Shown: piece by piece, positions 1-32,894 of the stretch
Layout of the letters: every line of letters begins with the position of its first letter
Numbering within the stretch: the stretch's first letter is position 1
From: Paraspadella gotoi
Lineage: Eukaryota > Animalia > Chaetognatha
Direction: 5' to 3'
Length of the DNA: 64,000 nt
Assembly (NCBI GenBank): GCA_051294375.1
Contig: CM119267.1
Span: 19,667,546-19,731,545, forward strand
Notes under the pieces: generated by a model
Database searches by the model: none
Seen by the model: only the letters and a program-made list of their open reading frames with translations
Told to the model about the DNA's origin: nothing
Made by a program: the position numbers and the translations under genes

Positions 1-208
1 AATTTCTGAAGAAGCAGAATTTTTACTTTGACAGTGGATCTTACTATCAATCCTTCAGTTCCCATTAAAACAATTGCGCTATGAAGGCTTACATTGAAGC
101 TGAAACATGTCCGAAATGTGTTTCTTTATAAAACTCGTACGTAAACAATTCATTTTCTACTTCAAACTTAAAAATTATAGTGGACTAAAATCCACCAATC
201 GTTCATCA

Positions 209-280
209 GCGGCCGTTGGTGCCGGAGGCAAGTCATTCGCCTCCCAACCCAAAGGTCCGGGGTTCTAGCCCGGTGGCCGC
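209..280 (+). promoter_or_regulatory. tRNA-derived (Gly-CCC-like) domain / putative Pol III type-2 promoter inside LTR1
   Basis: 72 nt with acceptor-like stem GCGGCCG/TGGCCGC, A-box-like TGGTGCCGGAGG, TCGCCTCCCA resembling the tRNA-Gly anticodon arm, and B-box-like GGTTCTAGCCC. A diverged copy is in LTR2 (~640-711). Confidence 0.65.
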
Positions 281-282
281 CT

Positions 283-368
283 AGCAGTTAAGAGGGACGG
301 GGCGATTAACCCGCCTGTAACAGCCTGTTACAGCCTGTTACAGCCTGATCCGAAGCTCAGGGACTGCT
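283..368 (+). ncRNA. Twister ribozyme, type P5 (LTR1, family A)
   Basis: AGCAGT/ACTGCT (P5); GA-CGG pairing with CCG-AAGC (pseudoknot); U^AAC-CC-GCC; P3 TGTAAC/GTTACA; P4 CCTGA/TCAGG. Predicted cleavage 307^308. P1 is minimal and P2 needs a bulge. Confidence 0.75.
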
Positions 369-713
369 TAAAATTGAACGGTTCTGTCACTAACATATAA
401 CAATTATCACTGTCTCTTCATTGGTGAGCCCGACTTCCGAACACAACAGCAACAACAACACTTTCAGGCGACATGCCTCAACCTGGCGATGCACTTTCCA
501 CCAACAACACATCAGGCAACATGCCTCAACTTGGTGACGCACTTTCCACCAACAACAACAATTCACTGTAGAGACGCAACAGACTTCTCCCTACGGGAGG
601 GGGGATGTATGGTGGACTAAAATCCACCAACCGTTCATCAGTGGCAATTTGTGCCGGAGGCAAGTCATTCGCTCCCAACCCAAAGGTCCAGGGTTCTAGC
701 CCGGTGGCCGCCT

Positions 714-789
714 AGCAGTTAAGAGGGACGGGGCACTTAACCCGCCTGTAACACGGTGTTACAGCCTGATCCGAAGCTCAGGGACTGCT
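714..789 (+). ncRNA. Twister ribozyme, type P5 (LTR2, family A)
   Basis: Same core as 283-368 with a clean P3 TGTAAC-ACGGT-GTTACA. Predicted cleavage 738^739. Confidence 0.75.
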
Positions 790-801
790 TATATTGAACG
801 G

Positions 802-1398
802 TAGAGCGTAGTGAAAGTTAAATACGAAAATTCTAAATGTCAATCAATACCATCAATGGATATTAATTTGTAAACAAAATTTATGTTCTTCAATTTTCGC
901 AGTAGGCTATATTTATATATAGTACTATCCTTATAAAATCGAAAAAATTCAAAATAGGCTTTTCTTAATTTTGATTGCAGATTTGAATTCCTCGTCAAAA
1001 GTTGATAAAAGAAAATATAAATCATTTTTAAATATTTTTTCAATAAGTGGGTTAAAAATTAAAAAAAATTTATTGAATATATAAAATTTTAATTTTCAGC
1101 TTAAAATATAGGTTTTTTTATATTTGATCAACTTAATGAAAGAATTTTTAAAAAAGAGTTATATTTCTTTATATCAACTTTTCATGACGAATCCAAATCT
1201 GCAAAAAAATCTTTAAGAAATAATTTTAGAATTTTAACATTTAGTGGATTAGTACTAGTATAAATATAGCCTACTGCGTAAATTTTAAAATTTATTATAA
1301 AATTTTTTTATACATAAATGTTAATTAGCATAATGTTGTTCATTCCTCACTTTTAGAATTTTAATTAAAGTTAAATTGATAATTTTTACTACGCCTTA
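802..1398. mobile_element. hAT-type MITE nested in LTR2
   Basis: Imperfect TIRs TAGAGCGTAGTGAAA / TTTTACTACGCCTTA. 8-bp TSD TTGAACGG (794-801, 1399-1406), present only once in uninterrupted LTR1. Confidence 0.85.
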
Positions 1399-1679
1399 TT
1401 GAACGGTTCTGTCACTAACATATAACAATTATCACTGTCTCTTCAAAATTTAAATTTATTATAAATTTTAAAATTTATATTACTGAACAAAAAAAATGTT
1501 TATTGCACAAACTGAGACTCGACGCTAGAGGGATAACAAAATTAAATGGATTAACAAAGCACCGACCGGTAGTACCTTAGGTTGTTGCGGACGTCGAATA
1601 GTAAAAGTAAAAAAAATTATAATATGAACACTTGATAATAATCATCACGTTTTCCTTTAAATTATATTAAAAATCAAAA

Positions 1680-1872
1680 GGTTAATTTTTACTTTCGCCG
1701 ACCGCGGTTTTGGCGGATTTTAAAAAACCTCTTGAAAATATTTATATTTTTTTTTTAAATTTAAAAAATATTACTTAATTACCCTAACCCTAAACCTTAA
1801 CCCTAAACCACCCCTAAACCACTTTTAACCCTAACCCTTCCCAAACCCCGGTCGGCGAAAGTAAAAGTAACC
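1680..1872. mobile_element. Small TIR element containing degenerate (CCCTAA)n telomere-like repeats
   Basis: Inverted termini GGTTAATTTTTACTTTCGCCGACC / GGTCGGCGAAAGTAAAAGTAACC; CCCTAA(A) repeats at ~1781-1840; no clear TSD. Confidence 0.55.
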
Positions 1873-3413
1873 CAATAAAAATTTTAGCATACTATTAGGA
1901 AATTTAAAAAAATTTTCAGGTAAAGAAACGTCAAGTAGTTTTCTAACTAATAAAAGTTACAAAAATAATATACAATGAAAGAATTACAAGCTTAATCAAG
2001 TCTTTTCGTATTGCTCCAGATTGAAGTCCCTAAAACTATTTGTTGAATACCGGCAAAGTAATCAAACCAAAAACACGCGAACCGTAGGATGACATTTGGC
2101 AACAGTTGACACTGCAGTGTCATCACTTAAATTACAACACCGTTGAGAATCTCATTAAAAGAAAAATCGTCCAATCATCCATGAAAAAGATAAAATTTAA
2201 AAAATTACTCACTTCCGAACCAAATTCATTTTTTGAAGTTATTGTAGTTTCTCCGTATTTTTTAGTTTGTAATTATCAAAAATATTAATCCGAAAATTAT
2301 CAAATAAATACCGGAAATAAGCTATAATCGGTGCGTTTAGAGCATCTGTACCCTAGCATCTCCAGCGGAATCCAAATAAATATACTCTAATTCGTCTGGA
2401 AATAAAAGATTGAGTCTCTCGAGTCGGACAACAGAGTGGTGTCGAATCCAGCTTCTGGCATTAAACAAAAGATGTTTAAAACAATTCAAGAAACATCCCA
2501 ATGAAAATTTTTGAAAGGGCTATGAACTAATATAAAATTATCCATTCAATCAATAAATAAGCTATCCTATCACTCATTCTGGATAGGATATGGTGGGTTA
2601 AACCTTGCATACTTTTTCACAATTTTACACTACTACAGTGCAGGAAACAAACCAGCTATCTCATATTGTTATTGCGTGATTGGCCCATATTTTCCAGTAT
2701 CTGTCCTTCAAGAATAAACTTGATTGTTGAACAAAATTGTCAATTGATCATGAGAGAGAGAGCTGAACTCGTCTATATATATAAAAATTGTTTTGTAAAT
2801 AAAACAAACAAATGAGTGGAAGAATATGAATATAACAATTTAAAAGACCTCAATGATGAGAAGCCTTATCTAAATGGTTACACACTCGAGCTATTTCTAA
2901 TGTTAAAACAGCGTGACGACTACGACGACACAATATAAAAAAGATCATTTTTCTAACTACCGAATTGGGTGAATTTTAAGTTACACCCTTATATACAAAT
3001 ATATAGTATGGATTATGGACTCAAACTTCAAATATTACTAATTGTAGCAATTTAGTTTTTTTACACTATTGACTATCACTGAGACATTAGACAAATATGA
3101 AAAAATCAGAAAGTAGCTTCAACAACAAGTGGTCTTTGTCAGTTTGTGAGACATCTCTCATTCTCTGATAGTAGCCTCAAAACCATGTCCGATTCTTGAC
3201 CATCCGAGTCCTAGAAACCGAATCTAAACTAACTTTAAACTAGTTTTAACTACCAAATACTCGGCTAAATTCTCAAAATGACTTCTGTATAACTTTTTTT
3301 TATAAAGTCGTAAAAAAAGTCACATCGTAACAGGCAAAAATTTAATTTGATAACAATGAACAAAAAGAATTCAAAGAAAAATAAGGACAACAGTCGAAAC
3401 AGGACCGCTTTAA

Positions 3414-4107
3414 CTAGGTATCTTCATTTTCATCGCGTTCGCCGGAACTGCATCGCGTAACTCGGTCTTTATATTCTTTCTCAGTCAACAGTCCCTGCTT
3501 GCCCGGTTTCCGATCCGACATTCGAGGAAGAACTATGGCGAGAAATCCTTCGCCCTCGGGGTCCGAGGTCAAGAGTTCGGGGCGCGAAACGAGGCGGGCG
3601 TTGGCCTCGACCAAGGCCCCTCTGACGCCGTTCGTTAAGACATGACGAGATCCATCTTCGCAGGTCACCGTCGCCAACGTCTAGCGATAGAGGCAAAACA
3701 TTGGGGCTCGAATGTGACAAGACGTCAGCTAAATCGACGGGCCTTGCGACATTGATTCATTAATCAATCACCTGTTTGTCATCGTGGAAGAACTGGCCTC
3801 CCTTTTTGCCTTTTCCCTTGACGGCGTTTTCGAGTCGATTGACTTTTTTCGAGACTTGAAAGTCGATCTGGACGGCCTTTAATCTATCGGCAAGAATCGG
3901 GTGCGACGGCGCAAGGGTCACCACGCAGATGCCGTTCGAGTGAACAAGGACCTGGACGTGAGCCACTGGCGGGACCCTATCTTTTTCCGGCGTTACTTCA
4001 AGTTTGTAGAAGCGAGTGAAGTATCTCTCGGCAAATGAAGGATATTTCGCAGTTTTAGCAGTCGGTTTGAGGCTTGCCTCTTCTTCGCTTTCTTCTCTTC
4101 GCTTCAT
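3414..4107 (-). CDS. ABITRAM: Abitram/Simiate (FAM206A), glycine cleavage H-like protein; 2 exons, intron 3681-3771
   Basis: YPSFAERYFTRFY, HSNGICVVTLAPSHP, NRLENAVKGKGKKGGQF, GVRGALVEANARL...PEGEGFLAIVLP; canonical GT-AG intron. Confidence 0.9.
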
Positions 4108-5391
4108 GCCGAAAAAATTCTCGTGCGACGTAAATGTTACCCCCACTCGAAGACAAAATCAAGGACATAATTCAAATTTTGTATTTAAAATAATATGTTC
4201 AATGAATGAGTACAATAATTAAAAAATATTACCGGAGGCGAAAACTTGTGAAATTACAAGTTAATTTCTGACAGAAAAAAATCCGTCTAGTGTAATTAAA
4301 AATGTTTTAATTACTAAATGACTAAATCTAAACTGATCAAGAACTGATTATTCTCAAAATTCGAAATGGCCCAGCGCTTAATAATTTAAATTATCAAATC
4401 TTTAAAAATTAAGTTAAAAAAGAACAATATGGAAGGTAAACAATTTAGAAACCTTTCCTAAAAATATTCACTATTTTTTTAAAAAAATTAAAAAATGGTT
4501 CGAATTACTATTTTAAGCCTTAAAATAAATTCATATTCTCAGCTCACGTCTAAAGATAGGGTAGTCTGATGATTTTTTATTTTTATAAAGAAAATTTTTT
4601 TTTCACGTGCTGACATGTGGCAGACAAGGTTAGCTTTCATATGATGCCTCACATGATGCATTAAAGTTGTTTTGTGATAGCATTGTGACATGGAAAGAAA
4701 AAAATTGTGATAATTTTTTTCTGCCAGGCCAACCATTCCACTTTAGGTCCCTTTTTTTATATCAAGATGACCAAATTTTTCTCGCGCTCCACCGGCAACA
4801 GCTTCCCAAGACGCCAAGCTTTCCAAATATGCCCATATTTATACTATTTATTACGGTCTTGTGGTTCGAATCGTGGGGAGACCACAAAAAAAGCCTAAAT
4901 TCAAGGAAACCTGATCCCCCATCTCGTAAAACTCTTAGAAATTGAAGAAAAAATGTAAAGGAAATAATGGAACAAGTTGCTTTCAAGGCATATCGCGTCT
5001 ATGCGCGTCTAAGTAGGTCAATTTTAAAAACATATTTGGAATCCTCAAACGCATATTTACTAGTAACCTGACGACATCAAACGACGGAGGTTCAGTTCTC
5101 TTGTTGTATCAAAAAGAAAAATTAATTCTGATATTTATAGTTGATATCTGTCAATTTCAATGAAAAAAAGGGCACTGGATGTGTTGCATGTGATTGAACA
5201 ATGTTACCACAATAATAATTTTATCAATTTTAGGTATTTTGTAAGTATTTTAAGTATTTTTATTCAGTGAGTAAAATAACGACTTTTTTATTCGCTAATC
5301 TTAATCTCGGACGCTTAACGCCAGACGTCCCTACTAAAGATTAACCTTCCAGCGCGGTTGAACGCCTCGTCGCCAACGAAAAACTAATCTC

Positions 5392-7191: not shown

Positions 7192-7676
7192 GATTTACGA
7201 AGGCAAATATTCAATTCATAATCCATGAATTTTATCTTTTAAAAACGCTCTGGAATTACATAAGATAATAATAAAAACAAAACTCAACGATAACTATAAA
7301 AGTATAACATATAATTATTTATTTTGTTAAATCTCATGATAAAAATAATGTATTTGTATTTTGGGTAAAAATCCCCTTTGCTAAAGGGAATCCTCTCCGC
7401 ACAAGTTAGCACCGCAATCTGAAAATTGGACATGGAACATATAAAAGCGAACAGAACTAAAGACGATTGTCAACTTGTGGCACATAAACTCTCGTTGAAA
7501 CTTGCCTTGAACAAGTACAAAAGTTATTAAGACAAGAACATTCTTTTGGCGCAAAAGAAAACTTGTCATGATTTTTTTTTAATAAAAAATTGAAAAGATG
7601 AAACAATACGGGTTCCATTTCATAGCGTATCTAGTACCCATCAGTAATTATTGGTCATTAGCTTAAGTCCCGCCGT

Positions 7677-8454
7677 TCATGCCAAGGTCTGCCTCTGTCT
7701 CCTATCAAAAACTTCTTCGACGTTTCCATCGTAACCAGCAGCAGCTCCGCGAGATTTCGTCTTTCCCGTAGCAAATTCCTCGTAAATCTCTTCGTATTTC
7801 TCGATGTCCTTCCCGACGACAGAGGGTTTGGTTTGGATCAAGGCTCGATCCAGGTGTCGCCGGCCAACTCGAAGAACCGCCCCGCCGACGCCGACCACCT
7901 CAGCATCGCGGACGTCGTCGAAGGCAGCCAAACGTGCGTTGTGCAACAGACCCTTGAGGTCGGCCCCTGAAAAGCCGGCGCAAAATGTGGCGACCCAGGA
8001 GAGATTGATGTCATCGTCGAGAGCGACGTTCATCCTTCGAGAAAAAATCTCCAAGATCTCGAGCCTCTCCGCTTCGTTCGGCAGCGGGCAGAAGAGCGTT
8101 TGTCCGAGGCGTCCAGGTCGCAGCAGCGCCGGATCAACGAGGTCTGGCCGACTTGTGGCGGCGAGAACGTGCACGGCGTCTCGCGCCTCGACGCCGTCGA
8201 GTTGAGTGAGCAGTTGATTGACGACGCGATCGGCGACGCCCGTGGAATCGCGACCGCGACGAGGCGCCAGCGACTCGAACTCGTCAAAGAACAAAAGGCA
8301 GGGGCGGGCGGCACGGGCACGATCGAACAGGTCGCGAACGGCTCTCTCGCTCTCGCCAACATATTTGGAAAGAAGTTCCGGACCCTGATGTCAAGGAGAA
8401 ACGATTTTGGTAAGAGTAAAAATTATGAAAAATTTGACTCTCACCCCTCCCTCC

Positions 8455-8486
<32 letters not shown>

Positions 8487-11400
8487 TCTTTCTAAAAGGA
8501 TCGAAATATTGGTTTTCAATAAAAAAAAAAAAAAAAAATACTGAAATTGAACCAAAATTTGACGTTTTTAATCAATTATGATAATGGTTTATTAAACGCT
8601 CCTTACCTTAACTGAAATAAATCGCAACCCGCATTCGTTTGCCGCCGCCGCAGCGACGTAGGTTTTTCCAGTTCCCGGGGGCCCGTACAACAAAACGCCC
8701 GTTTTAAGCTGGATGGGGCACTTGGACAAGAGCCGTGGATATTTCGTAGGCCACTCGAGCAATTCTGAGAGTTTTTTCTTGACTTTTCTCAATCCGCCGA
8801 CATTCGCCCAATTCACCGGAGCTGGGGTGTGTAATACAACGCCTTTAAGAGCCGAAGGCGTGAATCCGTCTAATGCCGCTTCAAAGTCTTGTGGTTTTAG
8901 TGCTTCTGTCGCTGCGCCGCCTCCACCGCGCATGCGTCGAGCGTGGATTGCGCGCTCGATGATTCGCTCCAAATCGCGGGCAACGTAACCCTCCGTACGA
9001 CGCACAACGTCATCAAGTGACAAGTTTTCCGCTGTCTCGGGCAATACGGAACCATTCTTCCGCAGCAGGGTTCGCAACAGCGTTCCACGGTGAAGAAGGG
9101 TAGGCGGCTCCAACTGTAACACGCGACCGAAGAAGTGATGGCCACGAGAGTCAGTCAGTGTCCCGTGTAAGGTGTGCTCGGAAATCGCCGTGGCCAATAC
9201 AGCAAGGGACTCGCTCCTGTTAAGCGCCGCAGACAAGATTCGGAACACCGCTTCCGCTAAGCGTCCGTGGTAGGAAACTTCTTGCATGCTGTCTGTTTCT
9301 GGTACCTGTGAAGGAACTAGAACGTCCAAATCATCAAGGACCAGAATTGACGGCGCGTGAAATAACGCCTCTTCCAGTCTCTCCTCGATTTCCTTCTTCA
9401 CAGCGTCCACTTTGCGTCCGCGTAATGGCACGCAGTCAAGCCACGTCACTCGTGCCAAATACGGTGGCGAGGTCAGTTGCGCCACCGTCGATCTAGCAAA
9501 GGAAGTGCGACCAACGCCTCGGCGACCGCAAATAAGTAGACAGCCTCGCGCGCGGGCAGACGAGAGCTTATTCAAATGACGAGAGAGCGGATCCACAGCC
9601 AAAGAAGAAACGATATGTAGGATAGCGTCCTGAAAGGAATTCTGGTAACCGAGTGCGGTCCATGCATTTCTTTTCCAAACGAGGCACCCGGGGTTCTTGG
9701 GCGCGAATGAAATTTGAGAGGAATCCTCAGCCGTGGGGCGGTGAAGTAACAAATTCTCTTCGGGCGATCGAGGCTTCCAGTCAGAGGGGGCGGAGTGACG
9801 AACAAATTCCACCTGCAAATGCGTTAGCTGCGAAGGCGGAATCAAACAGTAACCACCTTTGATCTTTTTCTTATGATCTGGAGACTCGCTCACGCCTTCG
9901 AACTCGACGAAGCACTCGAGGCAAATGTCGGCAGTGAGTGAAAGTTGAACGGCGGTCGGGTTGCACAGAAGGAAGGGGAAGATTTCGCTGGAAATACTGG
10001 AGACCCACTGGCGAAAGCGACATACGACTTCATCGTCCTTCACGTCGTCTACCAGAGGTTTTGATGGACGTATTAGGATCTTTCCCGGGGTGATGGGAAC
10101 TTGTTGAGTAGACGACACGAGAACCTTTTCGGTAGCGGCGCAACGACGATGGCGACGGAAGAGATCTGGGACCATCACGTGACCCGATAAAGGAAATATC
10201 GCACCCGACTCTTGCTCGTCCGTTCGAAGAACGTCGCGGGTTCCGTTATTGCTACTGCTTGCGTTTCCGCCGTTGCCGAAGTCGCCTGCAGAGTCTTCTT
10301 GGTTTTCGTCAATAAGAACGCGAACGAAATGAGTAAACACCAGCCCAGAATACAGAGCCTCTTCTACGGTACCATCTCCTTTTTCCGACGCAGTTGGCGA
10401 ACCGAGAAGATCCGCCTTGTTGGTTGCACGTAGTTTGGTGACAAGTTTTTCTCGCGAATCTTCGCGGTTCTGTTGTGGTGATAGAATTAATGACATTTCA
10501 GCGATAAAAGATCTTGTCTTCGCCGGAAGGTGGCTCGGCAAAGAGTCCCGATGGACGTGGACGGTGTTTGGTTGACGCCAAATAAGTTTAAGGCCGCAAA
10601 AGAGAAACTTCGAGACTGAGGAAAGAACCGAGTCGGCGTCGGTCGATGCTCTCTTGGCGTCGTTAACAGAGGTTGACGCGAAACGCCCCTCCAATGACGC
10701 GTGCCGGGAGAATCGAGTCGCGAGATCCGGTGATCGTTGCCGGGATAAAAGCGTCCCATCGTCCATTGGCTGTATGCGCAGCAAAGCGTCGAAAGAGCTT
10801 CGTAGGATCTCGGCGTTAAATTTTTTGAAGGAAGACAACGAGGAATTGGTCGAAAATAACGACCCGGGGCCAGCAACGGCTTCCAAAGTCTCGACGTTCG
10901 TAGTTCCGGGTAGAGATCCGATGACGGAAGGTGCAACGAAAGACAGGGCGTCCAAAACTTTGCCAAAGACCGAGGATGAACGTTCATCATAAGCGTCATT
11001 GGGTTGCGCTTCTGCAATATGTGGAAAAGTATTCATCACAGAGACGACGCCTTCCTTTTGGTTGGTTACTCCTTTGTTATTCTCCAAAGTTTCGGAACGT
11101 CGGTAAAGTACACTAGAGCAGATATGAACTATACGACTGTAGATGGCATTGCCTGAGGCCGAAGCGGCCGCCGCTGCAGCGGTCGCCGCCGAAACGGGAT
11201 CGATGTTACGGGACAAATCTCTCGACACAGCAGTAAAAAGGTTGGTCAAAAGGGGATCGGGAGACAGTTTTTCCGAGAGCTTCTCGATGAGAGGATGGTG
11301 CCGCTTCGTAGTCGCTAAAAAGTCGTCGTCGAGGTTTTCGTCGTCTAAATCGTCATCGGAATCGTAAGGGAGACTCGGCAGACTCTCCAAAGATCCGACG

Positions 11401-12259
11401 CCGTCGAGTAGCTGAGTCAGCCCGCGATCGAGTGTCCGCTCGTTGACGCTCACGGCTCGATACTGTCCGTTCGCTTTGACCCGAGAGGCAGTTCGAGTTG
11501 GTGGGGCTGGTCGAGGTTGGGGAGCCGACGCGGCAGACCGGATAATGTCGTCAAAAAGCGGAGGAGGGTCCGCGTAATGAGGACTGTGACGGCCGGATAG
11601 GCCTTTTCCCTCCTGACGATAGGGTGGAGGAGATATCAAAACCTCGGTCAAAGTTTCCAATTTAATCGGGCGGACGTTGGGTTGAACGCAGGAGATTAAG
11701 ACAAAGACAACGATGACATCGTTGACCCAGATGGGGATGACCTGGCCCGCCTGGACGATACGGATCTGATCCAACAAGGTCGCTTCAATCTCCTCAGCGT
11801 TCGCCTCGAGAATTTCCCAGTCGTCGACCGAAACTGGTTCTACCGTGATCCTATTTTTTGTTTTTAATTTTGCATAATACAAGATAATATACAAGGTTAT
11901 ACGTAATTTAATAATCATCAATATTATTGATATTATTCAATAAGCAGACTGACCAACCTCCGACAAGGCGTGATCGCCGGCGGTAGAGGTCTCACAATAA
12001 CTTCCTGCCCGTGATAAACTCCGAGCTTCTCGGCATAGAGAGAGTTGATCGTGATGACCTCGCAGTTGGAGGAAACGATGTCGCCCGACCAAGAGACGTA
12101 GATCGGAGTTCTCGTCTTGTCGAACAAAAGCTCGAAGGCAATCACGTCGGCGACGGAAGTCGAGGCCGAAATGAGACGCGCCAAAGACTTGGTGATGCCG
12201 ACAAAGCAGTTCCGGTGTCCCGTAAAGGTCACTTTCGCAAGGGCCACTTTACCGTTCAT
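7677..12259 (-). CDS. PEX1: Peroxisomal AAA ATPase PEX1 (3 exons)
   Basis: PEX1 N-domain motif [26 protein letters not shown]; two AAA modules ([39 protein letters not shown]); ends RQTLA. Confidence 0.95.
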
Positions 12260-12443
12260 GGCGCGGCGTCAGGCGGGAAGTGGATAAGGGGGGAATTTTT
12301 GAAAACGGATCTCGAGGGAGGAAAAAGATAAAACCAAAAATCAACAAAGCATGATAATAAATATTTATTATACGTATTTAAATACGCTTCAACAGGATGG
12401 AATTCGAGGCAAAGGGATCAGCGAGGGGAAGAAAATCGGTCTA

Positions 12444-15193: not shown

Positions 15194-15297
15194 CGTTTGT
15201 GTTAAAAATCGGAGGTACGAATAGAGAGCGAAATGACCAAAATTTGGTTAGGCTGCTTGGATCTTAAAAGATAACAAAATAAATAACAATGTAACGA

Positions 15298-18030: not shown

Positions 18031-20469
18031 TTACCAGAGTTGTTCATACATTTCGTCAATGTACTGTCGATACTTCGTGAGCACCAGGCCTCGTTTGACT
18101 TTAAAGGTTGGCGTGAGTAAATCATTCTCGGGCGTCCACATCTCGGCTTCGAGGTAAATGTCCTTAACCTGTTCGAAAGAGGCGAGCTTAGCCTCTTTAC
18201 CCACCCGGACCATGTCTTCGAGGATTGCCGCTTTGAGGGCGGGGTCGGCGACCAGGTCGGCCAATGAGGACTCCCCATCCGCACCGTTGTTGTTGTTCTT
18301 GGCAGCCCACTTCCGCGTCGCATCCTCGTCCGGAACGACGACGGCCACGAGGACGGATTTGAGCGATTCTCCATGGACAAACACTTGACCGACGAGGGCG
18401 CTGCGGGCGTAAACCGTTTCAATCTTTTCCGGAGCCACGTATTCTCCCTGCGCCAGTTTGAAAATGTTCTTTTTCCTGTCTATAATCTTGAGAGATCCGC
18501 TTGGCGACCAGAGGCCGATGTCGCCGGTGTGCAGCCAGCCGTCTTCGTCGAGGGCTTCCTGCGTCCTCTGAGGATCCTTGTAGTAACCCTTGAAAACGTT
18601 GGTCCCCTTCATGCAGATCTCGCCCTTGTTGTCCCGGGCAAAGTATCCCATTTCAGGAACATCGACCAATTTGATCTTTTGACAGGGAAGCGGAGGGCCT
18701 ACTTCGCCGGTAGTGCGTTCGCCTTTTGAAATAGCGATGTAAATATTCCATATCCGTCAACCATTTCTCACTTTCCCGCTTTGTTCCTCACCTATGAGTT
18801 GAACCGTAGCGACCCCGGCGCATTCGGTCTGACCGTAACCTTCCATCATGTACGCCCCCATGCCCGCACGGGCGAACTCCATGACGTTGGGATCCAGCGG
18901 CGCGGAACCGCTGAAAATGGCCTTTACGCAACCGCCGAGAGTTTGATGGATTTTCTTAAACGCTGAAAGGAAATGATGTTGATTCAAAAAAGAGTCATTT
19001 TTTATTTAAGAAACAGGCTGATGTGGCGAATCCTAAATTCACCTCCCATATAGCTTGGTGAAACTCAGCTTGTCCAACCGTGAGTTCCAGGTTTAATCCC
19101 CTCATGGTCACGCTGGTTAAGTGTGATGGTGTCAGCATAAATACGCCAGTGACATGGGGTAGTCACTGCAGGTACAAAGCCCTGAGCGCCAGCTGTCGGT
19201 AGATGTCATCACAAATATTTCCCCGTCGTCATACTGATTAACTTTCTTTATTAAGTCACGACACATCTACACAACCAACTTACCGATATAATCCCAAAGG
19301 GTGTCCCTCTTGAAAATTCCTTGCTCGATGTCACTCTTCTTTTTCTTTAACGCCCAGTTGAATACGAAAGACTTTATGCGTGAGCCGCTGACGTTTCCGC
19401 GCACCGTATCGTACATCCGATTGAGTAAACGCGGGACGGTGGGAAACACCGTGGGTCCAAGCGCCTGCATGTCCGAGGTAAGAAGTTTAATGTCGCCCTG
19501 ATAAAACCCGATTCTGCCGCCGAGCGTGATGATGGTAAGCAGGACGCTCTGTTCGAAAACGTGGGCCAGGGGCAAATAGCTAATGTGGGCCTCCGCGGGA
19601 GTGAGGTTGAGCGGCTTGCACCACTCCAAGACGCCGGCCACTGTTCCGCAATAGTTGGCGTGGGTCAGCATAGCGCCCTTGGGATTCCCCGTGGTCCCGC
19701 TAGTGTAGCAAATGATGGCAAGGTCGTCAGGTTTCGGTAATGAGAGCTCCACCGGATTTTCCTTTCCCTTGGCCAGGACGTCGTTCCAAGAAATGAGAAC
19801 AATGCCGCCTCGTTCTGCCGTCGCCTTTACTTCCTCTCCTACGGTCTCGATGACGACGAGCTTCTTCAACGAGGGCGTGTCCGAGAGTCTTCCTAACAAA
19901 CTCTTCGCCTTAGCCTCCGTATCGCAGAGAACGCAAGAAGTTTCAGTCTGGTTAAGGATAAAACTACAGGATTCGGGTCCGAGAGTGTCGTACAAAGGCA
20001 CGATGCTAGTGGTATACATCCAACACCCAAACGCCGCCACCATCCATTCGACGCGGTTTTGCGAGTAAATGCCAAGAAAAGACTCTGGGTTGCCAGGCTC
20101 CAACACGCCGAGATCTACGAGGCCAGAGATTAAATCCTTGGCTCGCTGCTCGGTCTCAGAGAAGGAAAAAAAAGTATAAGGGGCCTCCTTCTCGGGTCGC
20201 CAGCCGAGGCAGGGCCCGTCCTCGGACACCCGCTTGCCGTGAAAAAACATTTCGGCGAGAGTGGAGCAACATCCGAAGGGTTGCGACGACATCGGGGCGT
20301 TCTTGTTCAAGAGGACAGACTTGCGTGGAACGTCAGCCCGGTCCCCATCGTGGCCGCCATACGTTTCCGGCGTCGAGACACGTCGAATATCGAGGTAGGA
20401 TAGGTCGACGTTCATCTCACCATAAGGTCCGGCTTTGGCAGGAATAGAAAGAGAGGTTGAAGTGGACAT
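18031..20469 (-). CDS. ACSL1: Long-chain acyl-CoA synthetase (ACSL1/5/6 type), 3 exons
   Basis: ICYTSGTTGNPKGAMLTH, SYLPLAHVFE, EGYGQTEC, GWLHTGDIG, IIDRKKNIFKLAQGEYVAPEKIE, LLTPTFKVKR. The exact paralog cannot be determined. Confidence 0.9.
19022..19233 (+). mobile_element. Solo LTR related to family B twister element, in an ACSL intron
   Basis: TGTGGC...GTCATA termini like the family B LTRs; 4-bp TSD CTGA (19018-19021 / 19234-19237); degenerate B box GGTTTAATCCC. Confidence 0.75.
19112..19193 (+). ncRNA. Twister ribozyme, type P5 (solo LTR), one pseudoknot mismatch
   Basis: P5 GCTGGT/GCCAGC; P2 GTGT/ATAC; GA-TGG vs ACA-AAGC; U^AA at 19138^19139; P3 AGTGAC/GTCACT; P4 CAGG/CCTG. Confidence 0.7.
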
Positions 20470-23220: not shown

Positions 23221-23366
23221 TTTTAAACTAGAAATTTTTTAGATAGTTCTTTAAAATCACCAATAACACGTACCACGTTAATTAAAACGCTCGCGCAAGG
23301 AAATAAATAGCGAAAAACCAATTTTAGTAATTTGTTTCCGTTTCTGCTTCGTTTTTTTTTTTTTAA

Positions 23367-26300
23367 CTAATCGAATGTTTGTTCAAAGTTAAGTACCCCT
23401 ACAGATCTCGGCGGAAAAGAAAATTCTTCGGAAGTGCTCACGTCTTGGGCGTTCGTTGTTTTGAAAAGGGTCAAGAATTTGTTAACGAGCCGAATCTCTG
23501 CAGCTTCTTCGTCGTCCTTTTGATCTTCTTCCTCTCCTCTCTTCAGCGACGTCTTCAAAACGCTGAGGTTTGTCTCGGCGTTGGCCATCGCCATCATCTT
23601 GTCGTTGATCTCGGCCCGATTGGCGTCGAGAACCGAGGCGCCGGAGATGCGTCGACCGTGCTGCCGGAAGGATGGCAGCAGAGCCGCGTCGTAGTGGGCG
23701 TCGAGGATTGCGCCGAGGGGCGACGACGCGATTGAAAGATCGTCGATGGTCAAAAGGTCGACGAGGTGAACTAACGTCATGCAGATTTGATCGATGAGAA
23801 CCTAGTGGGTAAGGTGGGCGAAAACGAGACTAAATGAGCATTAGGATGAAGAAATTAAATGAAAAGAAAGAAGAGAAAAATAAAATATACATGGTGACAA
23901 TTTTACAAGCGCCGGTAGAAATACGCTGTCATTTGCAAACCAGTGGTTATTTCATTGATTTTAAAAATTAGTTGAGGAGAAAATATTAAAATCATTTAGG
24001 TGTTCAAATTTTATATTGATCAGTTAAGATATGCCTTGACAATGAGTGGAGAAAGTTGGCTTGTAAAATCGGGTTTCATTTTCCAACTCAGTTTTTAAAT
24101 TCAATTTTTTTTCACTTTTAGCACTTTTTTAAACAAAGTATTTATTAAGATATTAAAAATATTAATATCTTTAGAAAGCCCTTAAAAATATGAAGAGAAT
24201 GATATACTTACGAAAGCTCTAACATAATAATTAAGCTGCCCGGTGTTGGTTCAATTAAGAGTGTCAAAAGTGAATTATCTAAAATTTTAAATCTTTTTTT
24301 AAAATATATGACCTGTTTAAATTATTATAACATAAAATATTATTATTTATATAAGTATCATAAAAGAGCCTGAGAAAAAAAAGATTTAAGATAGCCAATC
24401 ACAATTTGATAAAAATCTAAAATTTACCCTCCAACTATTTATTTTTAGAAAGATGACTCGTTTTTGAGTTTCCTAATTAAATTAAAGCTTGGCCGGTTAA
24501 ATTTTATATTATAGTATTTGTAAGTACGTCATTCTCTTTAGATTTGAAAGGGCTTTCAGAAGATATTAATATGAATATTATTTTATTTCNNNNNNNNNNC
24601 ACTTTTTTAAACAAATTATTTATTAAGATATTAAAAATATTAATATCTTCAGAAAGCCCTTAAAAATATGAAGAGAATATACTTACGAAAGCTCTAACAT
24701 AATAATTAAGCTGCCCGGTCTTGGTTCAATTAAGAGTGTCAAAAGTGAATTATCTAAAATTTTAAATTTTTTTAAAAAATATATGACCGGTTTAAATTAT
24801 TATAACATAAAATATTATTATTTATATAAGTATCATGAAAGAGCCTGAGAAAAAAAAGATTTAAGATAGCCAATCACAATTTGATAAAAATCTAAAATTT
24901 ACCCTCCAGCTATTTATTTTTGGAAAGATGACTCGTTTTTGAGTTTCTTAATTAAATTAAAGCTTGGCCGGTTAAATTTTATATTATAGTATTTGTAAGT
25001 ACGTCATTCTCTTTAGATTTGAAAGAGCTTTCAGAAGATATTAATATGAATATTATTTAATTTCAAATTTCTTCAGAAAACTTACTGAAAGTAAGATAAA
25101 AAAATTAAATCTAAAAAAGTGAGTTTAAAAATCAGAGACAATTTTCAAATCCATCTTCCAGCTATCATTGCTGAGGCATATCAATGTCAATTCTGATAAA
25201 ATTTGCATATATAAATAGTTTGGGTTTTTACTTTTAAATTCATATTTAACATGGGTTTGCAAATGACAGCTTTTTTTTACCGGCGCTTGTAAAATTGTCA
25301 CCATGTACAAAGCAAACAAAACCGACCACCAAAAAAATTTTACAGTATTTTTTGTATATTTCAATTTTCCAACAACACACCTCTCGATATTTGACTTCGG
25401 AAAAATCGGAGACGATCTCGGCGTTCTGCAGACCGACGAAAAGGCTTTCCCAAACGGTAGCAAACTCAGTAGCGCTCCCGTAAAACCGGCGCTCCTTGGG
25501 AACTCCGAGCGCCAAAGCGGCGTTTATTCGAACTTTGAAGTTCTTGCATTCCTTGACGGCAGTGCAAAGGGCGATGACCATGTCGCGGATCCACGAGGCT
25601 CCCAGCGCGTCCACCAATAAAGGTGCGTTGCGTAACATGTTGGCCAGCGCGTAGCAGGCGTTCCAGCGTACCTTGAGGGAGCGCCCAACAACAGTGAAAG
25701 AATTTTTAAAAAAAGATTTCTTAAGGACCATCAAAAAATAACTACTGAGGCGGTGTGAGATTACTTTCATCAATCCAGTAGCGATATTTTCTATGAGAGA
25801 GTAAACGGCCTTAGCAGAGGCATCCTTAAATGGAGTGACGGCATAAGTGGCTTCGGGAAGATACCGAAGAAGGTTGCCAACGGCCCGAACGGCATTAGCG
25901 CGAACTTTGTCGGTGTCGCCCGCAGCGGCTATGGCACTTAACAACAGCTTTAGCAAGAGACGGGCGTCCAATTCGTTAACGAAGGAAGCTCCAAGCGTCT
26001 CGCGGTTCACGAACCTGAAAGTCGGAAAATTCGTTTTGAATTACTAATTATTTTTACACGGATAATTTTGACGATTCTCACAGCGATTCGCTCAAATTTC
26101 CAAAGGCCCAGGCCGCCTTGATGCGAACCGCTTGCTGTCCCATCGCGTTGTTAGGATAAGAAGAAGAGGAGGAGTCGAGGCAGGCGACGACCGCATGTCC
26201 TACGTCGGAGATGAAGTTGACGTCCTCTCGAAGAGTAGGGTATTGAATATAAACGCCTAAATTTTTTTAATGCGGAACAAAATTTATTCTTTCTACCAAT

Positions 26301-28951
26301 TCCAGTTTCTCAACCTTTTGCCAAATATTACCCAGAGTCCTAATCGCTGCCGCACGGACCAAGGGATCCACTTCAGGCTGGGCCAGCCCCAGAGGAATAG
26401 TCATGCAGAGAACGACCTTGTCCCTGGGCAGCATCTGGAACACCTGGGGCCCCATAGTGGCGATGGCGTCACAGGCCGACGCTTGGATGAGCGCCTCGTT
26501 CATGTTCTGTAGCGCGGAGATGAGAGCGACGTCGCCAAGCATAGAGACCCATATGTCTTTGATCTCCGCCAGAGAGACACGCCTCATCGAAGGCTTTCTC
26601 TCCGTCTTTAAATCGCCGCAACCGCTGTTAGCCGTCTCCAGTTCCGTCAGAAGTGCCCGACCAAATTCCTCGAGGAGCTTGGCGCTGTGCAGCTGGACGG
26701 ATGTTTCCGCGTCGACGAGACCGGCCTTGATGATCGAGACGAGATCGGGAATGCCCACGCGCAGAACGGGCAAATGCGAACGAACCATATAGCCGAGCAG
26801 TTGCAAAGCTTCGATGCGGAGTGGAGCGACTCTGGATTCGTGATCGACGGCCGGTTTGACGATGTTGAAGCAGTGGCGTGCCAACCAAGAGACGGAGGGA
26901 GCGGCCGCGGGGGTCGGTTCGGAGGGGGACTCGACTGCTCCGTCTCTTCCGACCGGAGAATGTTCCGAGCTTTCCTTCTCCATCAAAACGCTGTGAACTT
27001 CATCGACGACGTTTTGCGCGCAAAGGACTGAACCCAGACACGTCAGCGACGCAATTTTCACGCCAACTTCTTTGTGGTTAACGAAGTGACGAACTTTCCG
27101 TACCACCTTAGTTAAAAGGCCTTCGGTCAATTTGTAATATGGAACGTTGACGACCAAAGAGGCGATGCATTTGAGTATTTGCGTCAAGGCAATGTGATTG
27201 GTTTCTGAAGCGAGCGCTTGTAGCAAGGCCCGGTGAAGCTCGTGAATTGTCCCCGACAACGTTTGAGACAAAGGCGTAAACGCGAGTTGAGGCGCGGCAT
27301 TGCTCGCGCTTCGACGTTTCGGGTTGTCATCAGCGATTGCTAGGTACTGCTTGGAGCCTTCGAGGAGGTAGCTGAGGACGGAGACGGCCGTTGCGCGAAC
27401 CTTTGTGGAGGGATCCTTCAAGATTGAGACTAAGAGATTAGACTCTAGAGCGGCGTTTCCCGCGGGCCCCGTGGGAAGCGCGTGGTCGGGCAAAAACGCC
27501 GACCAATATCCAAGAATCACTCGGCGATCCGTGCATTTTATGACCGAGTAGAGGGTGGCATGGCATTGCTGGCGAAGCGCGCTCGAGGCTCCACGAAGCT
27601 TACTCAACGTTCCTCCCTCCGTATCGGAAAACTCTGATTCCGAAGAAGTTAATTTGAATTGCCTATGAGCGAAAGCGGAAGAATTGGCATTGTAGTTAGG
27701 GTGCCGATAAATTGCACCTTCGCCGTAACCGGCCCCAGGGAAAAAATCCGGTGCATGCGGATTAAGTCCGCGTTTGACCAGCCGCTGGGACGATCCGTCG
27801 CTTGTTTCTATAGGAGAACATAACGCCTGCTCCGGTTTGAAATCCCCGGCGCCACTTTTTTCATCTCCGGTGGCCACAGCGTATTGACTTTTGTTGTTCT
27901 TCTTCCCACGACGCCGGTTTTTCTTGTTTGGCGACGGCGCCACCTTCCCGGGCAAAATTCCGATTTCTTTCATGGTAAGCGGCGCGTCGGGAATACTGAG
28001 CGGAGTCGGGAAGAGTCGCGACGAAAAGTTGAGCCCCGGCGGCGGAGAGTAAGAGCCGGAAATGCCGAAAAACATGAAAGACTTGAGTGAGGCCAAGAGA
28101 TGGCCGATAGTCTCGGCGTGGACCCCGTGATGCAGCAGCAGGCAATTCTCGAGACCGTTCACACAGGCCAACATGCGTTGGGCGAAAGCGATTGAGGCGT
28201 CGATAGCGCCGGAAGAGGATGAAGGTAGCGGTGAAGAGGAAGAGATGGGGGGCAAACTAATCGGAGTTAAAAGAAGGTTAAGGAAAAGATCGTAGCACCG
28301 AGCGGCGTGATCCACGCCGATCGACATCTCGTTGGCCACACGGGCTGAAGTTTTCATTAAGATGTTCCGAAGGCACTTTAAGGCGGCAAGGCGGATCGTC
28401 GCCGGCCGAGGTTCAAGGCACAGCGGCGGAAGAATACCCCCGACGTTTAGGGCCTGGACGTGTGCGAAATTGACTCGCGGCGCCTTGGAAGACCCGAGCA
28501 GAGAATCGCGAAGATCGGCAGTGAGTCGCGAACCATTTTCGAAAAGCAAGGCACCTAAGGCCGTCAGAATAAGCTCAACTGAGGGGGAAGTCTCGGAGGA
28601 ATAGTAGCGCGACAAGAGGCGGGTCAGAAAACCGACGAGAACGTTCAAGCCTCGATCGCTCAGTGTCAGATGGCTTTTCAGAGTCAACCTTTCGGTCAAT
28701 TGACAGGATTTTAAAAAGAGGCGTTCATGACATTCAAAGTCGAGACGTTCACAAAGATCGAAACAAGCAATCAATCCATCCTCGTTAGCGGCGTTGTTGG
28801 CTGGACCGGAAACGTCACTAGCAAGCAAAAGGTCCAAGCGCTGCTCGAAAAGAGCCGACCAATCGGATTCTTGGCGGCTCAAACATAACTTCGTTATAAA
28901 ATCTAAGTCATTTTGATAAGTCTGATGATTAGGGGCGAAAAAGTGGGCCAT
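23367..28951 (-). CDS. HEATR6: HEAT repeat-containing protein 6
   Basis: SSESEFSDTEGG, ILKDPSTKVRA, AFTPLSQTL, DKVRANAVRAVGNLLRY, KVRWNACYALANM, NFKVRINAALAL. Confidence 0.9.
23890..25305. mobile_element. TA-targeting (Tc1/mariner-type) MITE in the last HEATR6 intron; length inflated by a duplication across the N gap
   Basis: ~50-bp TIRs CATGGTGACAATTTTACAAGCGCCGGTA..., TA on both sides; same family as 46405-47321 in opposite orientation. Confidence 0.9.
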
Positions 28952-29165
28952 AATTTATTCACTGTTGGGTTTCATCATTTTCATTCTTAAGGAAAAAAAA
29001 TTTAATTTAAATTATTAATAAATAAGTATTCAGATCAGAATTATTTAATATTTGGCGATGCAACAAGATACAAAGAGAAATTAAAATTAAGATATTCTTG
29101 AAATAAAACTTTGATTTACAACTTCAGCTTACTTCGAAATTTGATGTTATTCTTTTTATTTCGAA

Positions 29166-30053
29166 ATGGATAACCTTTTCGGATCTAATTCAATTACTTT
29201 GAGCGTTCATCAAACCACATTGATAACCGACGTCCGATTGTGTCGAAAACTTTACGAAGTAAGGACTAAATAAATTGAAAGGTGTGCCACTTTTGATAAG
29301 AATTTATTGACTGGTAAATTCGGGTACTTTTTAAACACTATTTTTTTTATTAGAAAAAGAGGGATTAATTCGGTGAGTCATAAACTTGGCAGTCGTAACT
29401 AATTACATCTTTGTAGATCTTAATCAAATGACCCCTTTGAAGCGGCTTCAACGGACAGGGAAATCAACCACCAGAAAACGCTCTTTATATCTTTTATCAA
29501 AATTCTGCCTAGAGAGTCGCCACGCCTTATTTTATTCTTAGGAGTTGCTAGATCAGGCGAAGAGGCGAAAGTTCGCCACATCGGTGAGCATTCGTCGCAA
29601 AATGATCTCACTTGGATTCCAAATGACAAGAGAAGAACTCGAGAAGGTTTCTTAATACTTACGTCATGAAAGTTAAAATAAACTTAAAATCACAGCGATT
29701 CTCTACCTAAAGCTCGCCAAAGACATCCGCGTCCGGCAGGAAACGTCCAAATTAACGTGGAAGGATTTTGTTGACATCATCGAAAGGGCCGAGATCAACC
29801 AACACTTCGTCGTTCTCTTTCAAAAAGCGGACAAGGACGAAGATGGGTACGTCTTTGGCATTAGCGGTAGTCATGACTAGACATGTGAAGATGGATTTAA
29901 ATCTTATTCGCCAACAGACTGGTTACGGGCAACGAGCTGACAGTCGCCTTCGATGAGTTGTGCGACGAAGGCTCTTACTACATTGTCCCTAAGTTTCGAA
30001 TGTTGGCTAAATTGGTCCAAACGACCATCGGAAGCACGGTGATTTTAGTGTAA
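29166..30053 (+). CDS. EF-hand (calmodulin-like) protein; exons 29166-29258, 29542-29646, 29713-29846, 29918-30053; 3' end uncertain
   Basis: Manual splicing with GT-AG sites in consistent phase gives RKLYE|ELLDQAK...KMISLGFQMTREELEK|LAKDI...LTWKDFVDII...LFQKADKDEDG|LVTGNELTVAF, which includes a canonical EF loop. Confidence 0.65.
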
Positions 30054-30445
30054 TAATTTCATATAAGTGAAAAACATTTGTTTAATTTTATGAAACTATT
30101 TTTGAACAACAACAACAAGGTTGAGCCCACAATAATTTAATTTATTATTCCATTCGCTCTACTTCTACTCCCAAAACCCAAAACTCAGCAAGCGGACTTG
30201 ACCGAAGTGAAGGAATCCGCTGATGTATATCTCTTGATGATCGACGAAGTGACTAACCTCGAAGCGAACGAGACACGCCGCACGGGCGACGACGAAATCG
30301 ACGACGACGCAGTGCATTACAACAACGATCACGCCGAAGACGCGTGGTTTGCGGACAATGATCGTGACGGTTGCGTCGTCAGCTGAAATCAACTCGTTTC
30401 AAAGAAAACTTCTTGATCAATTTTCGTCTTATATTTAGTTGGTTT

Positions 30446-32894
30446 TTATGCATCGTCGCTTTGTTTCCTTTTTCTATAAAATACAACGAAGACGTCGAAA
30501 TTAACCTGAAGGTTCGACCCTTCTCCGTTCAAACGGGCGACTTCTGTCTTTAACTCTTCCAATAGTGAGACGTTGTCGGGATCTCTTTTCAGCAAGCGGC
30601 GATACCCGGACCAGGTGTCCACGTAGTTAAAAAAGTCGTCGAGAGGCCATTCATAGTTAAGGGTCAGTGCCTTTGCCTCGCGCCATGAGTCAAGGCCGAG
30701 CGCTAAGTCCGGGAGCTCCAAACCTTCGTAGCGTGTCTCCACATGACGTCTGTCCGCGGGCCAATCGAGTCGCCTGTAAAACCGATATAGCGTTGCGTTC
30801 AACGCATTAGTCTCATCGGAGACGTCGAATTTGTGACGGGAGCCGATAACAGGGGTGGAGTAGCCGAAAATGGCCGCCAAACCACCAGGAAAAAGAATTC
30901 TCCGACATTCCTTCAAGAAACCGGCCATGTCGAACCAATGTGCCGCCTGTATAGTATAAGAACAAAAAAAAATGTCCTTGGGGAAGGTATCGCTGTATGC
31001 CTATTGCCTAACCTGTCCGGCGATGACCAAATCTACGCTGGAATCCTCGACGTTGACTTTTTCGGCCACGCCGACCTCGAACCGCAGCTCCTCCGTCTCC
31101 GAAGAGATTTTTTTTATCGCTTCTGCGATTTGATTGGCTGAGGGATCGGTTGCCAAAGCTCGGCGAAAGTAAGTCAAAAAGGGTAAGGTGCTTTGCCCAC
31201 TACCGCATCCGAGATCGACCAGTTGATTCCATTTGCCGTCATACTTAAAAGCAAATATTCTTAGGCATTTTTTAAAATCTTATAGCCATCTTATGAAAGT
31301 TACAAAATTACTTATCTTGTTATCTTTATTTTTTAGATTTAAAATAACTTATTTATAATTTCATTTATTTGTTAAAATATTTTTGTGTTAAATATTTAAA
31401 TATAATATTATTTATGTTTGGGATGGGGACGTTTTCTGGAAATAGAGGGTGCATCTACACAACACAAGGTTAGATTACTTTCTGTTCCAGTTTTCTAATA
31501 GATATCGTACATCATTCCTGTCGGAAAATCATTAATGAAAAACTCATAATATCTATAAGGCCGAACAAAAAGGGGGAATGTATGGCAACGGAAGGATAGC
31601 CTGTGATACCCGGGGCGCGGGGTATCTCACCAACTGGCGTAGGGGCTGCGGACCCTCAGTGACCGCCTCCTGTCACTGGCATGTTTATACCGGCACCGTC
31701 ACATTTAAGCCAGAACCGGGATACCCAGGGATTGAACCCGGGACGCACGGATGGAATGAGATGATTTAGCCTGCTCAGCCATTGAGACGAGGCTGAGGAC
31801 GGACAGCAGTGAGGCAGCTTTAAGTCTTGCTGCCACAGGATCCCCCCACCAGACTTCTCCACAGGGGCCTCAATCCTGAGGAGATGTCTGAGAGAAGGTT
31901 TTGATCTCATTGCCATAGTGAGAGCGAGCGGGCGAGCGAGCGAGTCTGGAGCGTTACCAGAGAAGTAGGGCATAGGCGTGATATGCATACCCTAAGCGAC
32001 GTAAGCATGGGCGCACGGTGCGCAGCGGTTGCGTGTTCGAGAGTAGGGCTCACCACTTATGGCAACGGAAGGATAGCCTGTGATACCTGGGGCGCGGGGT
32101 ATCTCACCAACTGGCGTAGGGGCTGCGGACCCTCAGTGACCGCCTCCGTCACTGGCATGTTTATACCGGCACCGTCACATTTAAGCCAGAACCGGGATAC
32201 CCAGGGATTGAACCCGGGACGCACGGATGGAATGAGATGATTTAGCCTGCTCAGCCATTGAGACGAGGCTGAGGACGGACAGCAGTGATGCAGCTTTAAG
32301 TCTTGCTGCCACAAATGTATAATTTTTGGGGGGATTAATGTTGTGTAATAATCCTTTCTTTTTTGTTATGATGTAAATTAGGGATAAAGTTTGAAAGTTT
32401 CAAACTTTATCCCTAATCTACATCACAACAAAAAAAGAAAGGGATTAAGGTTATATGGTATGATTATTTTTATCTTAAGGATAAGACTACATGGTAGAAT
32501 TGTATGCTCTGATAGGGATACATACTGGGGAAATTTTTTAGGGGCAACTTTATATTTCGAATGTAATTTTAATTTTTATATATATATATATATATATATT
32601 TCTATATCGTTTTTTAAGTCAAATATAAAGGTCATCAGTCGGGAACCTATACCCTTCATGGATTTCGGCTCTTTAATCCCAATATCCAGGTATAGGCGAG
32701 CCATCACCAAATTATGTGATAATTATTTCCTTATCTTATTCCTGAATTTTTTAAATTGTTTTAGCCCTTACATCAGAAGGTCGTTTGTGACTCAAAGTTT
32801 CCATGATGTGCCGAACCAATTCCTTGGAGTAACTTGGGCGGTAAATTGCGTACGCGGCGGCATGCGACGCTTCTTCAAAAAACGACTTCGACAT
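30446..32894 (-). CDS. Class I SAM-dependent methyltransferase (Methyltransf_11 type), 3 exons
   Basis: MSKSFFEEASHAAAYAIYRPSY; LVDLGCGSGQST; TDPSANQIAEA; SVDLVIAGQ|AAHWFD; YVDTWSGYR. Confidence 0.85.
31634..31713 (-). ncRNA. Twister ribozyme, type P5 (3' LTR, family B)
   Basis: Same core as 32111-32189; predicted cleavage 31687^31686. Confidence 0.8.
32111..32189 (-). ncRNA. Twister ribozyme, type P5 (5' LTR, family B)
   Basis: P5 CTGGC/GCCAG; P2 ATGT/ACAT; GA-CGG vs CCG-CAGC; U^AA (32163^32162); GCC; P3 AGTGAC/GTCACT; P4 AGGG/CCCT. Confidence 0.8.
32204..32257 (-). promoter_or_regulatory. Pol III A box / B box pair in the 5' LTR of family B
   Basis: A box TGGCTGAGCAGG and B box GGGTTCAATCCC at tRNA-like spacing; repeated in the 3' LTR. 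Confidence 0.7.

Follow-up and report, generated by a model that had tools for sequence, protein, structure and literature searches.

Helenus elements (TRIMp3) are TRIMs (terminal-repeat retrotransposons in miniature), in which the long terminal repeats (LTRs) carry a tRNA-like head with A and B boxes and, in animals, the insertions are flanked by 4-bp duplications of the target site (TSDs) (Kojima 2024, PMC10886601). The animal members depend on Gypsy, and transcription by RNA polymerase III (Pol III) is unvalidated for Helenus itself as well (PMC10886601). Plant LTR retrozymes harbor a type III hammerhead ribozyme in each LTR together with a 4-bp TSD, a PBS (primer binding site) and a PPT (polypurine tract), and are modeled as moving through RNA circles, with no R region left after cleavage (PMC4918200); in one plant retrozyme, a promoter belonging to the LTR itself lies upstream of the ribozyme (PMC9695139). 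The term LTR retrozyme denotes these plant hammerhead elements, animal retrozymes having no LTR, PBS or PPT (PMC7761336, PMC7229834, 10.64898/2026.07.22.740005), and insect elements with type III hammerheads are cited as work in preparation (PMC7761336). We analyzed a 64,000-nt stretch of the chaetognath Paraspadella gotoi (GCA_051294375.1, contig CM119267.1, positions 19,667,546 to 19,731,545; hereafter the window), which contains three families of protein-free elements with a tRNA-like box and a predicted twister ribozyme in the LTR. Such elements would join Helenus and the retrozymes through a different ribozyme class.

Self-comparison of the window identified two TRIM-like elements, each with two LTRs. 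Element 2 (31581 to 32313, minus strand) is 733 bp long, contains no open reading frame (ORF) of 130 aa and is bounded by the TSD AATG (31577 to 31580, partner 32314 to 32317). Its 5′ LTR (32058 to 32313) carries an A box (32246 to 32257) and a B box (32204 to 32214), both with zero mismatches, followed by a predicted type-P5 twister fold (32111 to 32189; predicted cut 32163/32162). The 3′ LTR (31581 to 31837), identical to the 5′ LTR at 254 of 256 bases, repeats this arrangement, with A box 31770 to 31781, B box 31728 to 31738 and twister fold 31634 to 31713 (predicted cut 31687/31686). A PBS (32046 to 32055) and a short PPT (31841 to 31850) lie between the two LTRs.

Element 1 (176 to 1445, plus strand) was evident as the direct repeats 176 to 382/608 to 802 and 373 to 420/1398 to 1445. 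Its TSD, AAAT (172 to 175, partner 1446 to 1449), lies in an AT-rich flank and is thus the weakest of the three TSDs. The 5′ LTR (176 to 420, TA...CA ends) has a B box with one mismatch (261 to 271), no clean A box upstream of it, and a type-P5 twister fold (283 to 368; predicted cut 307/308). The PBS (422 to 431) and PPT (595 to 605) are followed by the first part of the 3′ LTR (608 to 802), with B box 692 to 702 and twister fold 714 to 789 (predicted cut 738/739). This LTR is interrupted by a later, AT-rich, MITE-like (miniature inverted-repeat transposable element) insertion of 595 bp (803 to 1397), which is not part of the system, and ends with 1408 to 1445. The LTR pair is identical at 184 of 195 aligned bases before the insertion and at 38 of 38 after it. 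Without the insertion element 1 measures 675 bp, and it, too, contains no 130-aa ORF. This copy looks decayed. In its 5′ LTR fold a 10-nt duplication lengthens P3, and P2 of element 1 consists of 3 bp and a bulge. As regards the insertion itself, it has long imperfect inverted repeats and a 10- to 11-bp target duplication (793 to 802/1398 to 1407), and we take it to resemble a Mutator-type MITE.

The third family is represented by a solo LTR (19022 to 19233, plus strand) with TG...TA ends and the duplication CTGA on both sides, so that a 4-bp TSD is present at three of three insertions, as the initial annotation had reported. The solo LTR contains a B box with one mismatch (19090 to 19100) and a type-P5 twister fold with one broken T1 pair (19113 to 19192; predicted cut 19138/19139), and its segment 19073 to 19195 matches the element 2 LTR pair at 71% in the window self-comparison. 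This copy likewise looks decayed. A profile search of the window with the five LTRs found no additional copies. The two complete elements share the same PBS 10-mer, which occurs exactly twice in the window, each time 1 to 2 nt behind a 5′ LTR; one further site, which is the chance level, is found if a mismatch is allowed. The common PBS and the PPT runs that had been noted from the sequence were borne out. Over 13 nt the PBS of element 1 differs at one position from the PBS given for tRNA-Trp in Fig. S2 of Kojima, and the primer tRNA of the elements is likely tRNA-Trp.

With Helenus these elements share a non-coding TRIM body of less than 1.3 kb, tRNA-like box sequence in the LTR (both boxes in element 2, the B box in the others), PBS, PPT, 4-bp TSD, solo LTRs and several families per genome, and some published Helenus LTRs likewise begin with TA or end in TA (PMC10886601). 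They differ in the ∼100 to 150 nt beyond the B box, which here hold the twister fold and no T run (PMC10886601). In the text of the Helenus paper the word "twister" has 0 occurrences and no ribozyme in Helenus is mentioned; its supplement does not contain our PBS 10-mer, and its animal Helenus LTR consensuses, inspected by eye, show no twister (PMC10886601). Four exact twister-loop strings gave two matches in this supplement, both in internal regions, in a layout whose line breaks can hide matches (PMC10886601). The same supplement (DataS1) contains two gall-wasp LTRs, Helenus-2_SyJa-LTR and Helenus-2_SyUm-LTR, which by eye have a type III hammerhead-like fold after the B box, comprising a core, a cleavage triplet and loops that are complementary to each other (PMC10886601); both elements use a tRNA-Trp PBS (PMC10886601). 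This putative fold goes unremarked in the portions of the paper available, and, strictly speaking, both elements would count as LTR retrozymes of an animal.

The elements resemble plant LTR retrozymes in their non-coding center, one ribozyme per LTR, PBS, PPT, 4-bp TSD and a cut-to-cut monomer without a terminal repeat (PMC4918200). The plant elements have a tRNA-Met PBS, ∼700-nt monomers and, as far as the source was available, no described Pol III head, whereas here the ribozyme would be a twister, the PBS is likely tRNA-Trp, the monomers measure 431 to 476 nt, the host is an animal and the circles are predicted (PMC4918200). Under the published hammerhead definition, therefore, the present elements would be said to work like LTR retrozymes rather than to be such. 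Schistosoma repeats, which are SINE-like (short interspersed nuclear element) hammerhead repeats with a Pol III promoter followed by the ribozyme (PMC6765202), share the combination of promoter and ribozyme with our elements, and the non-LTR retrozymes of axolotl, whose ribozymes cut as dimers, share a weak closing helix (PMC7229834). These animal systems differ in being tandem repeats without LTR, PBS or PPT, with type I hammerheads and Penelope-like helpers (PMC6765202, PMC7229834, 10.64898/2026.07.22.740005). In the T-variants of Perere-3 a twister likewise serves an animal retrotransposon, but it is of type P1, makes one cut, has its P1 completed by the target site and belongs to an autonomous non-LTR element, at whose 5′ end it lies (PMC8501958). 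Metatranscriptomes contain circular RNAs that carry twisters and whose genomic origin is unknown (10.1101/2022.07.19.500677). The literature that we searched, largely at the level of titles and abstracts and exclusive of Repbase, Dfam and the supplementary lists of the original twister paper, contained no twister in an LTR element and no animal LTR retrozyme. The label of candidate new system given by the initial annotation was overstated, since Helenus and the Schistosoma union of Pol III promoter and hammerhead are known (PMC10886601, PMC6765202); what stands of it is that a twister in a true LTR element and an LTR-type retrozyme in an animal are unreported in that literature.

All five LTRs hold a predicted type-P5 twister fold with helices P2, P3, P4 and P5. 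The T2 pseudoknot is intact in each of them, and T1 has three of three pairs in four folds and two of three in the solo LTR. The order of the parts equals that of the Rfam Twister-P5 consensus (P2′-GA-T1′-P1-U^AA-P2-GC-P4-L4, permuted with the opening at P5), and the order, both pseudoknots and the invariant bases are shared with the described type-P5 twister (Rfam RF02684; PMC5408937). The helices P2 to P5 quoted in the initial annotation, which gave U^AA, GCC, GA and (A/C)AGC as kept in all five folds, are each present as written. A descriptor consisting of the core, P2, P4 and T1, which was designed after the folds had been seen, matched five sites on both strands of the window (128 kb), exactly the five LTR folds, compared to 0.02 sites per shuffled window (100 shuffles). 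P3 (6 to 8 bp) and P5 (5 to 6 bp), which lie outside the descriptor and have chance frequencies of 0.004 and 0.09 per site, are present at all five sites.

Because the descriptor was written post hoc and found none of four bacterial controls, independent tests were sought. A covariance model built from families 2 and 3 recovered both folds of the left-out family 1, that of the 3′ LTR with E 4.9e-6 and that of the 5′ LTR with E 2.5e-4, the next background match having E 0.27 (these E-values are roughly calibrated). The same alignment stripped of its structure placed family 1 at background (E 2.3 and 3.4). The sequences of P2 to P5 differ between the families while the helices stay paired. The covariation that had been claimed from the letters alone agrees with a structure model that links family 1 and a sequence-only model that does not. 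Since family 1 lies beyond sequence-only linkage to the others and the three families yet keep their helices and pseudoknots by compensatory change, selection on the fold after the families split would be needed.

We compared the folds with published twister mutants. A scan of all mutants of the rice twister shows that no change is tolerated at G13, G30, A46 or G48 (PMC5113685), and all four are retained in 5/5 LTR folds, as are U^AA and the catalytic G. At one T1 pair the Rfam consensus has C-G, where families 1 and 2 have G-C and the solo LTR has A-U. In the rice matrix, double swaps of this pair have relative activities of 0.86 (G-C) and 0.83 (A-U), compared to just 0.13 and 0.37 for single changes, and A28C, the base that element 2 carries at position 28, has a relative activity of 1.00 (PMC5113685; columns counted by hand, and values from another scaffold that are no proof for the LTR folds). 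By this comparison, the core changes of element 2 are ones tolerated in the rice twister.

P1 is dispensable in twisters in vitro or can be short (PMC5408937, PMC8501958, PMC5113685). In the five LTR folds it is a hairpin of 1 to 2 bp with computed energies of +2.9 to +5.6 kcal/mol. The P1 segment of element 2 (32164 to 32171) is self-complementary at eight of eight positions, and a duplex of two copies has −10.9 kcal/mol versus +5.0 for the hairpin. The corresponding segments self-pair at 6/8 positions in the solo LTR and 4/6 in each LTR of element 1, where the mismatch positions differ. Since two of the four independent pairs of the palindrome are expected from the hairpin alone, its role as a two-copy helix is suggestive only. 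In axolotl retrozymes, hammerheads whose helix is weak show better cleavage as dimers (PMC7229834).

The B box lies 46 to 51 nt upstream of the predicted cut in all five LTRs, and 14 other B boxes with at most one mismatch occur in the 128 kb. Of the LTR order first proposed, A box to B box followed by twister, the B box and the fold hold in every LTR, and only element 2 has a clean A box. Excluding the insertion, no TTTT run is found on the sense strand of any element, a lack that suits read-through, if weakly. Pol III transcription of the elements is likely.

The mobility of element 2 was assessed by aligning contigs of four sequencing runs to it. In run X1, which may be the source sample, 44 and 37 contigs diverge from the reference precisely at the LTR ends 31581 and 31837 and continue into dissimilar sequence; in run X5, a separate study, 26 and 26 contigs do so at the same two positions, again with dissimilar flanks. 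The run search listed none of RNA; X9 and X10, which may be RNA, carry no weight here as signs of expression, nor does the small share of X10 as a sign of a second host. Moreover, paralogues of the host repeat of element 2 lack the element and have a single AATG, and hence are empty sites. Family 2 is dispersed, with many independent insertions. It is young and high-copy, with a complete core. The summed contig depth over the element 2 LTR is thousands of times the single-contig depth, a value that is no copy number and was not used as one. Element 2 is itself nested in another high-copy repeat (window ∼31434 to 32533), which contains a near-perfect 99-nt palindrome (32349 to 32447) that attracts spurious microRNA-family hits.

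These data lead us to favor, with somewhat better than even confidence, the reading that the elements are non-coding Helenus-type miniature LTR retrotransposons that move as retrozymes via circularized monomers. LTRs, TSDs, PBS, PPT, B box and fold all lie on one strand in each element, and the retrozyme analogy, the LTR anatomy and the twister fold first recognized by the initial annotation are supported. Transcription by Pol III is predicted to start from the 5′ LTR, and the twisters in both LTRs are predicted to self-cleave. The cut-to-cut distance is 476 nt in element 2 and 431 nt in element 1, which corresponds to one LTR plus the internal part. The released 476- or 431-nt monomer, which would have no terminal repeat, is likely then ligated into a circle; in vitro, the RNAs of animal retrozymes are circularized by RtcB (PMC7229834). 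For a monomer without a terminal repeat, the plant retrozyme model proposes that the RNA is circularized, primed by a tRNA and copied around the circle (PMC4918200). Here the circle would be copied by the reverse transcriptase of a Gypsy helper, which we postulate, and it would contain the promoter, so that every new copy could be transcribed on its own.

Several results count against this reading. Besides the post hoc design of the descriptor, element 1 has a 3-nt P2 strand opposite 4 nt, a length outside the range of the published rice mutant matrix, and the broken T1 pair of the solo LTR has on its own a relative activity of 0.20 in that matrix (PMC5113685), so that the twister of this copy is probably impaired. 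The Rfam twister check suggested in the initial annotation, which had counted the lack of a hit together with a lack of self-cleavage against its own proposal, found no twister at the gathering score in the whole window and none at E ≤ 10; none of the five folds reaches the RF02684 threshold of 37.6 bits. On small stretches, the twister-P1 model was the top match for element 2 (16.6 bits, E 1.7) and the solo LTR (17 bits, E 0.21), and no twister matched the element 1 stretch. Bacterial type-P5 controls (four matches among 301 genomes scored, three of them, L010, L012 and L013, over the cut-off) were missed by the descriptor (0/4) and, with a best E of only 1.1, by the family covariance model. 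Minimum-energy folding, which does not model pseudoknots, recovered only P3 and P5 in element 2, and in element 1 P3, P4 and P5, P2 being replaced by a different pairing; it recovered all nested helices in the solo LTR. Folding z-scores, under the same limit, ranged from −0.2 to −3.1, and the predicted circles are mildly structured (z −2.0 and −1.5). As to the promoter, the A box has zero mismatches in element 2 and two to three, the background level, in the remaining three LTRs, and is therefore clean in one family of three; ARAGORN called no tRNA, and the joint absence of T runs from the three elements has a weak P of about 0.075. Finally, most Helenus families spread without a ribozyme, which is thus not required for such elements.

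The misses among the bacterial controls led us to regard the LTR folds as a distinct subtype. Indeed, the Rfam P5 model has 58 positions, an 8-bp P1 and no P3, whereas the five LTR folds, all scoring below its threshold, have a closed P5, a 6- to 8-bp P3 and a 1- to 2-bp P1, the segment of family 2 being self-complementary. A reading of element 2 as type P1, taken from the Rfam alignment, was rejected, as P2 is broken and T1 lost in it. No hammerhead match was found in the window by the Rfam scans. Exact-pattern scans for relatives gave no match in viral contigs, and three matches in metagenomes and six in prokaryote genomes; all nine of the latter, which served as negative controls, have no intact helices and no twister hits. 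In one of the Rfam-positive bacterial P5 twisters (L010, 1501 to 1562), a P2 strand is similarly short and the P3 position holds an additional small hairpin, which makes it a naturally occurring counterpart of element 1.

The best surviving alternative, which we consider rather unlikely, is that the element, though its twister is active, moves as linear RNA, with the ribozyme either forming the 3′ end that a Pol III terminator would otherwise form or trimming a 5′ leader. If only one LTR is cut, the transcript would retain a terminal repeat of ∼100 nt, which suffices for normal strand transfer, and single cuts could result if the unstable P1 hairpin slows cleavage. The tRNA-like head here has no trailing T run, which many published Helenus LTRs, by eye, have just after the B box, and Cassandra and most Helenus use linear RNAs with terminal repeats (PMC10886601). 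On the other hand, the two ribozyme copies of an element differ little or not at all and the 5′ copy is transcribed before the other, so that cuts at both would be expected of a fast ribozyme, and the known ribozyme-bearing LTR elements accumulate circles (PMC4918200, PMC9695139). Less probable still, in our estimate, is that the twister is a passenger and the promoter alone matters, a SINE-like module of tRNA head and twister, of Penelope-like or RTE-type origin, having landed in a TRIM LTR. Kojima proposes SINE insertion into an LTR as the origin of Helenus (PMC10886601), the RTE-clade Perere-3 carries twisters (PMC8501958), and two of the three families are damaged in the copies seen; yet compensatory change has kept the helices and both pseudoknots across families that a sequence-only model does not link, and the core is complete in family 2, which is young and high in copy number. 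That the folds arise by chance from hairpins of GC-rich LTRs, or are another structured RNA that does not cleave, is very improbable, for the missing Rfam match and the weak z-scores of element 2 and the solo LTR are set against the rarity of descriptor sites in shuffled windows, helices outside the descriptor in every fold, the lack of helices in the nine sequence-only matches from prokaryotes and metagenomes, and a part order that follows the Rfam consensus.

Beyond the favored circular route, one may speculate that animals have an overlooked class of LTR retrozymes that are driven by Pol III and whose ribozyme can be exchanged, a twister here and a type III hammerhead in the gall-wasp Helenus-2, and that the twister here cuts as a dimer via the P1 palindrome of the 5′ and 3′ LTRs, so that only full-length transcripts would be cut and their ends held together for circularization. 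We put this extension forward tentatively, as less likely than not; a dimer-dependent twister, if true, would be new ribozyme biochemistry. If the favored reading is true, cut-and-circularize retrotransposition has been reached again with another ribozyme class and promoter type, the circle model becomes testable outside plants, and twisters, whose natural roles are mostly unknown, gain a second concrete job. Engineered circular-RNA expression cassettes combine a Pol III promoter with twisters, and the elements would be their natural counterpart. The published TRIM libraries merit rescanning for ribozymes missed by Rfam models.

The window is gene-dense animal sequence, from a genome that looks compact. 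Its metazoan-type acyl-CoA ligase has most of its named matches at ∼60% identity and no close named relative; the solo LTR lies between two exon-like ORFs of this gene, on the opposite strand. Very long single-exon-like ORFs are found at 8592 to 11936 (1114 aa), 26267 to 28954 (895 aa) and 43030 to 45312 (760 aa), which we take to be PEX1-like, HEAT-repeat-like and NOL9-like, respectively. A MITE-like family has two copies, 23882 to 25307 and 46403 to 47329, with long inverted repeats and 85 to 88% likeness; a 468-bp direct repeat in the former, which straddles a gap of 10 N, is probably an assembly artefact. A tandem array of about nine 22-nt units occupies 49484 to 49698, and related short stretches are present on the other strand at 61667 to 61725.

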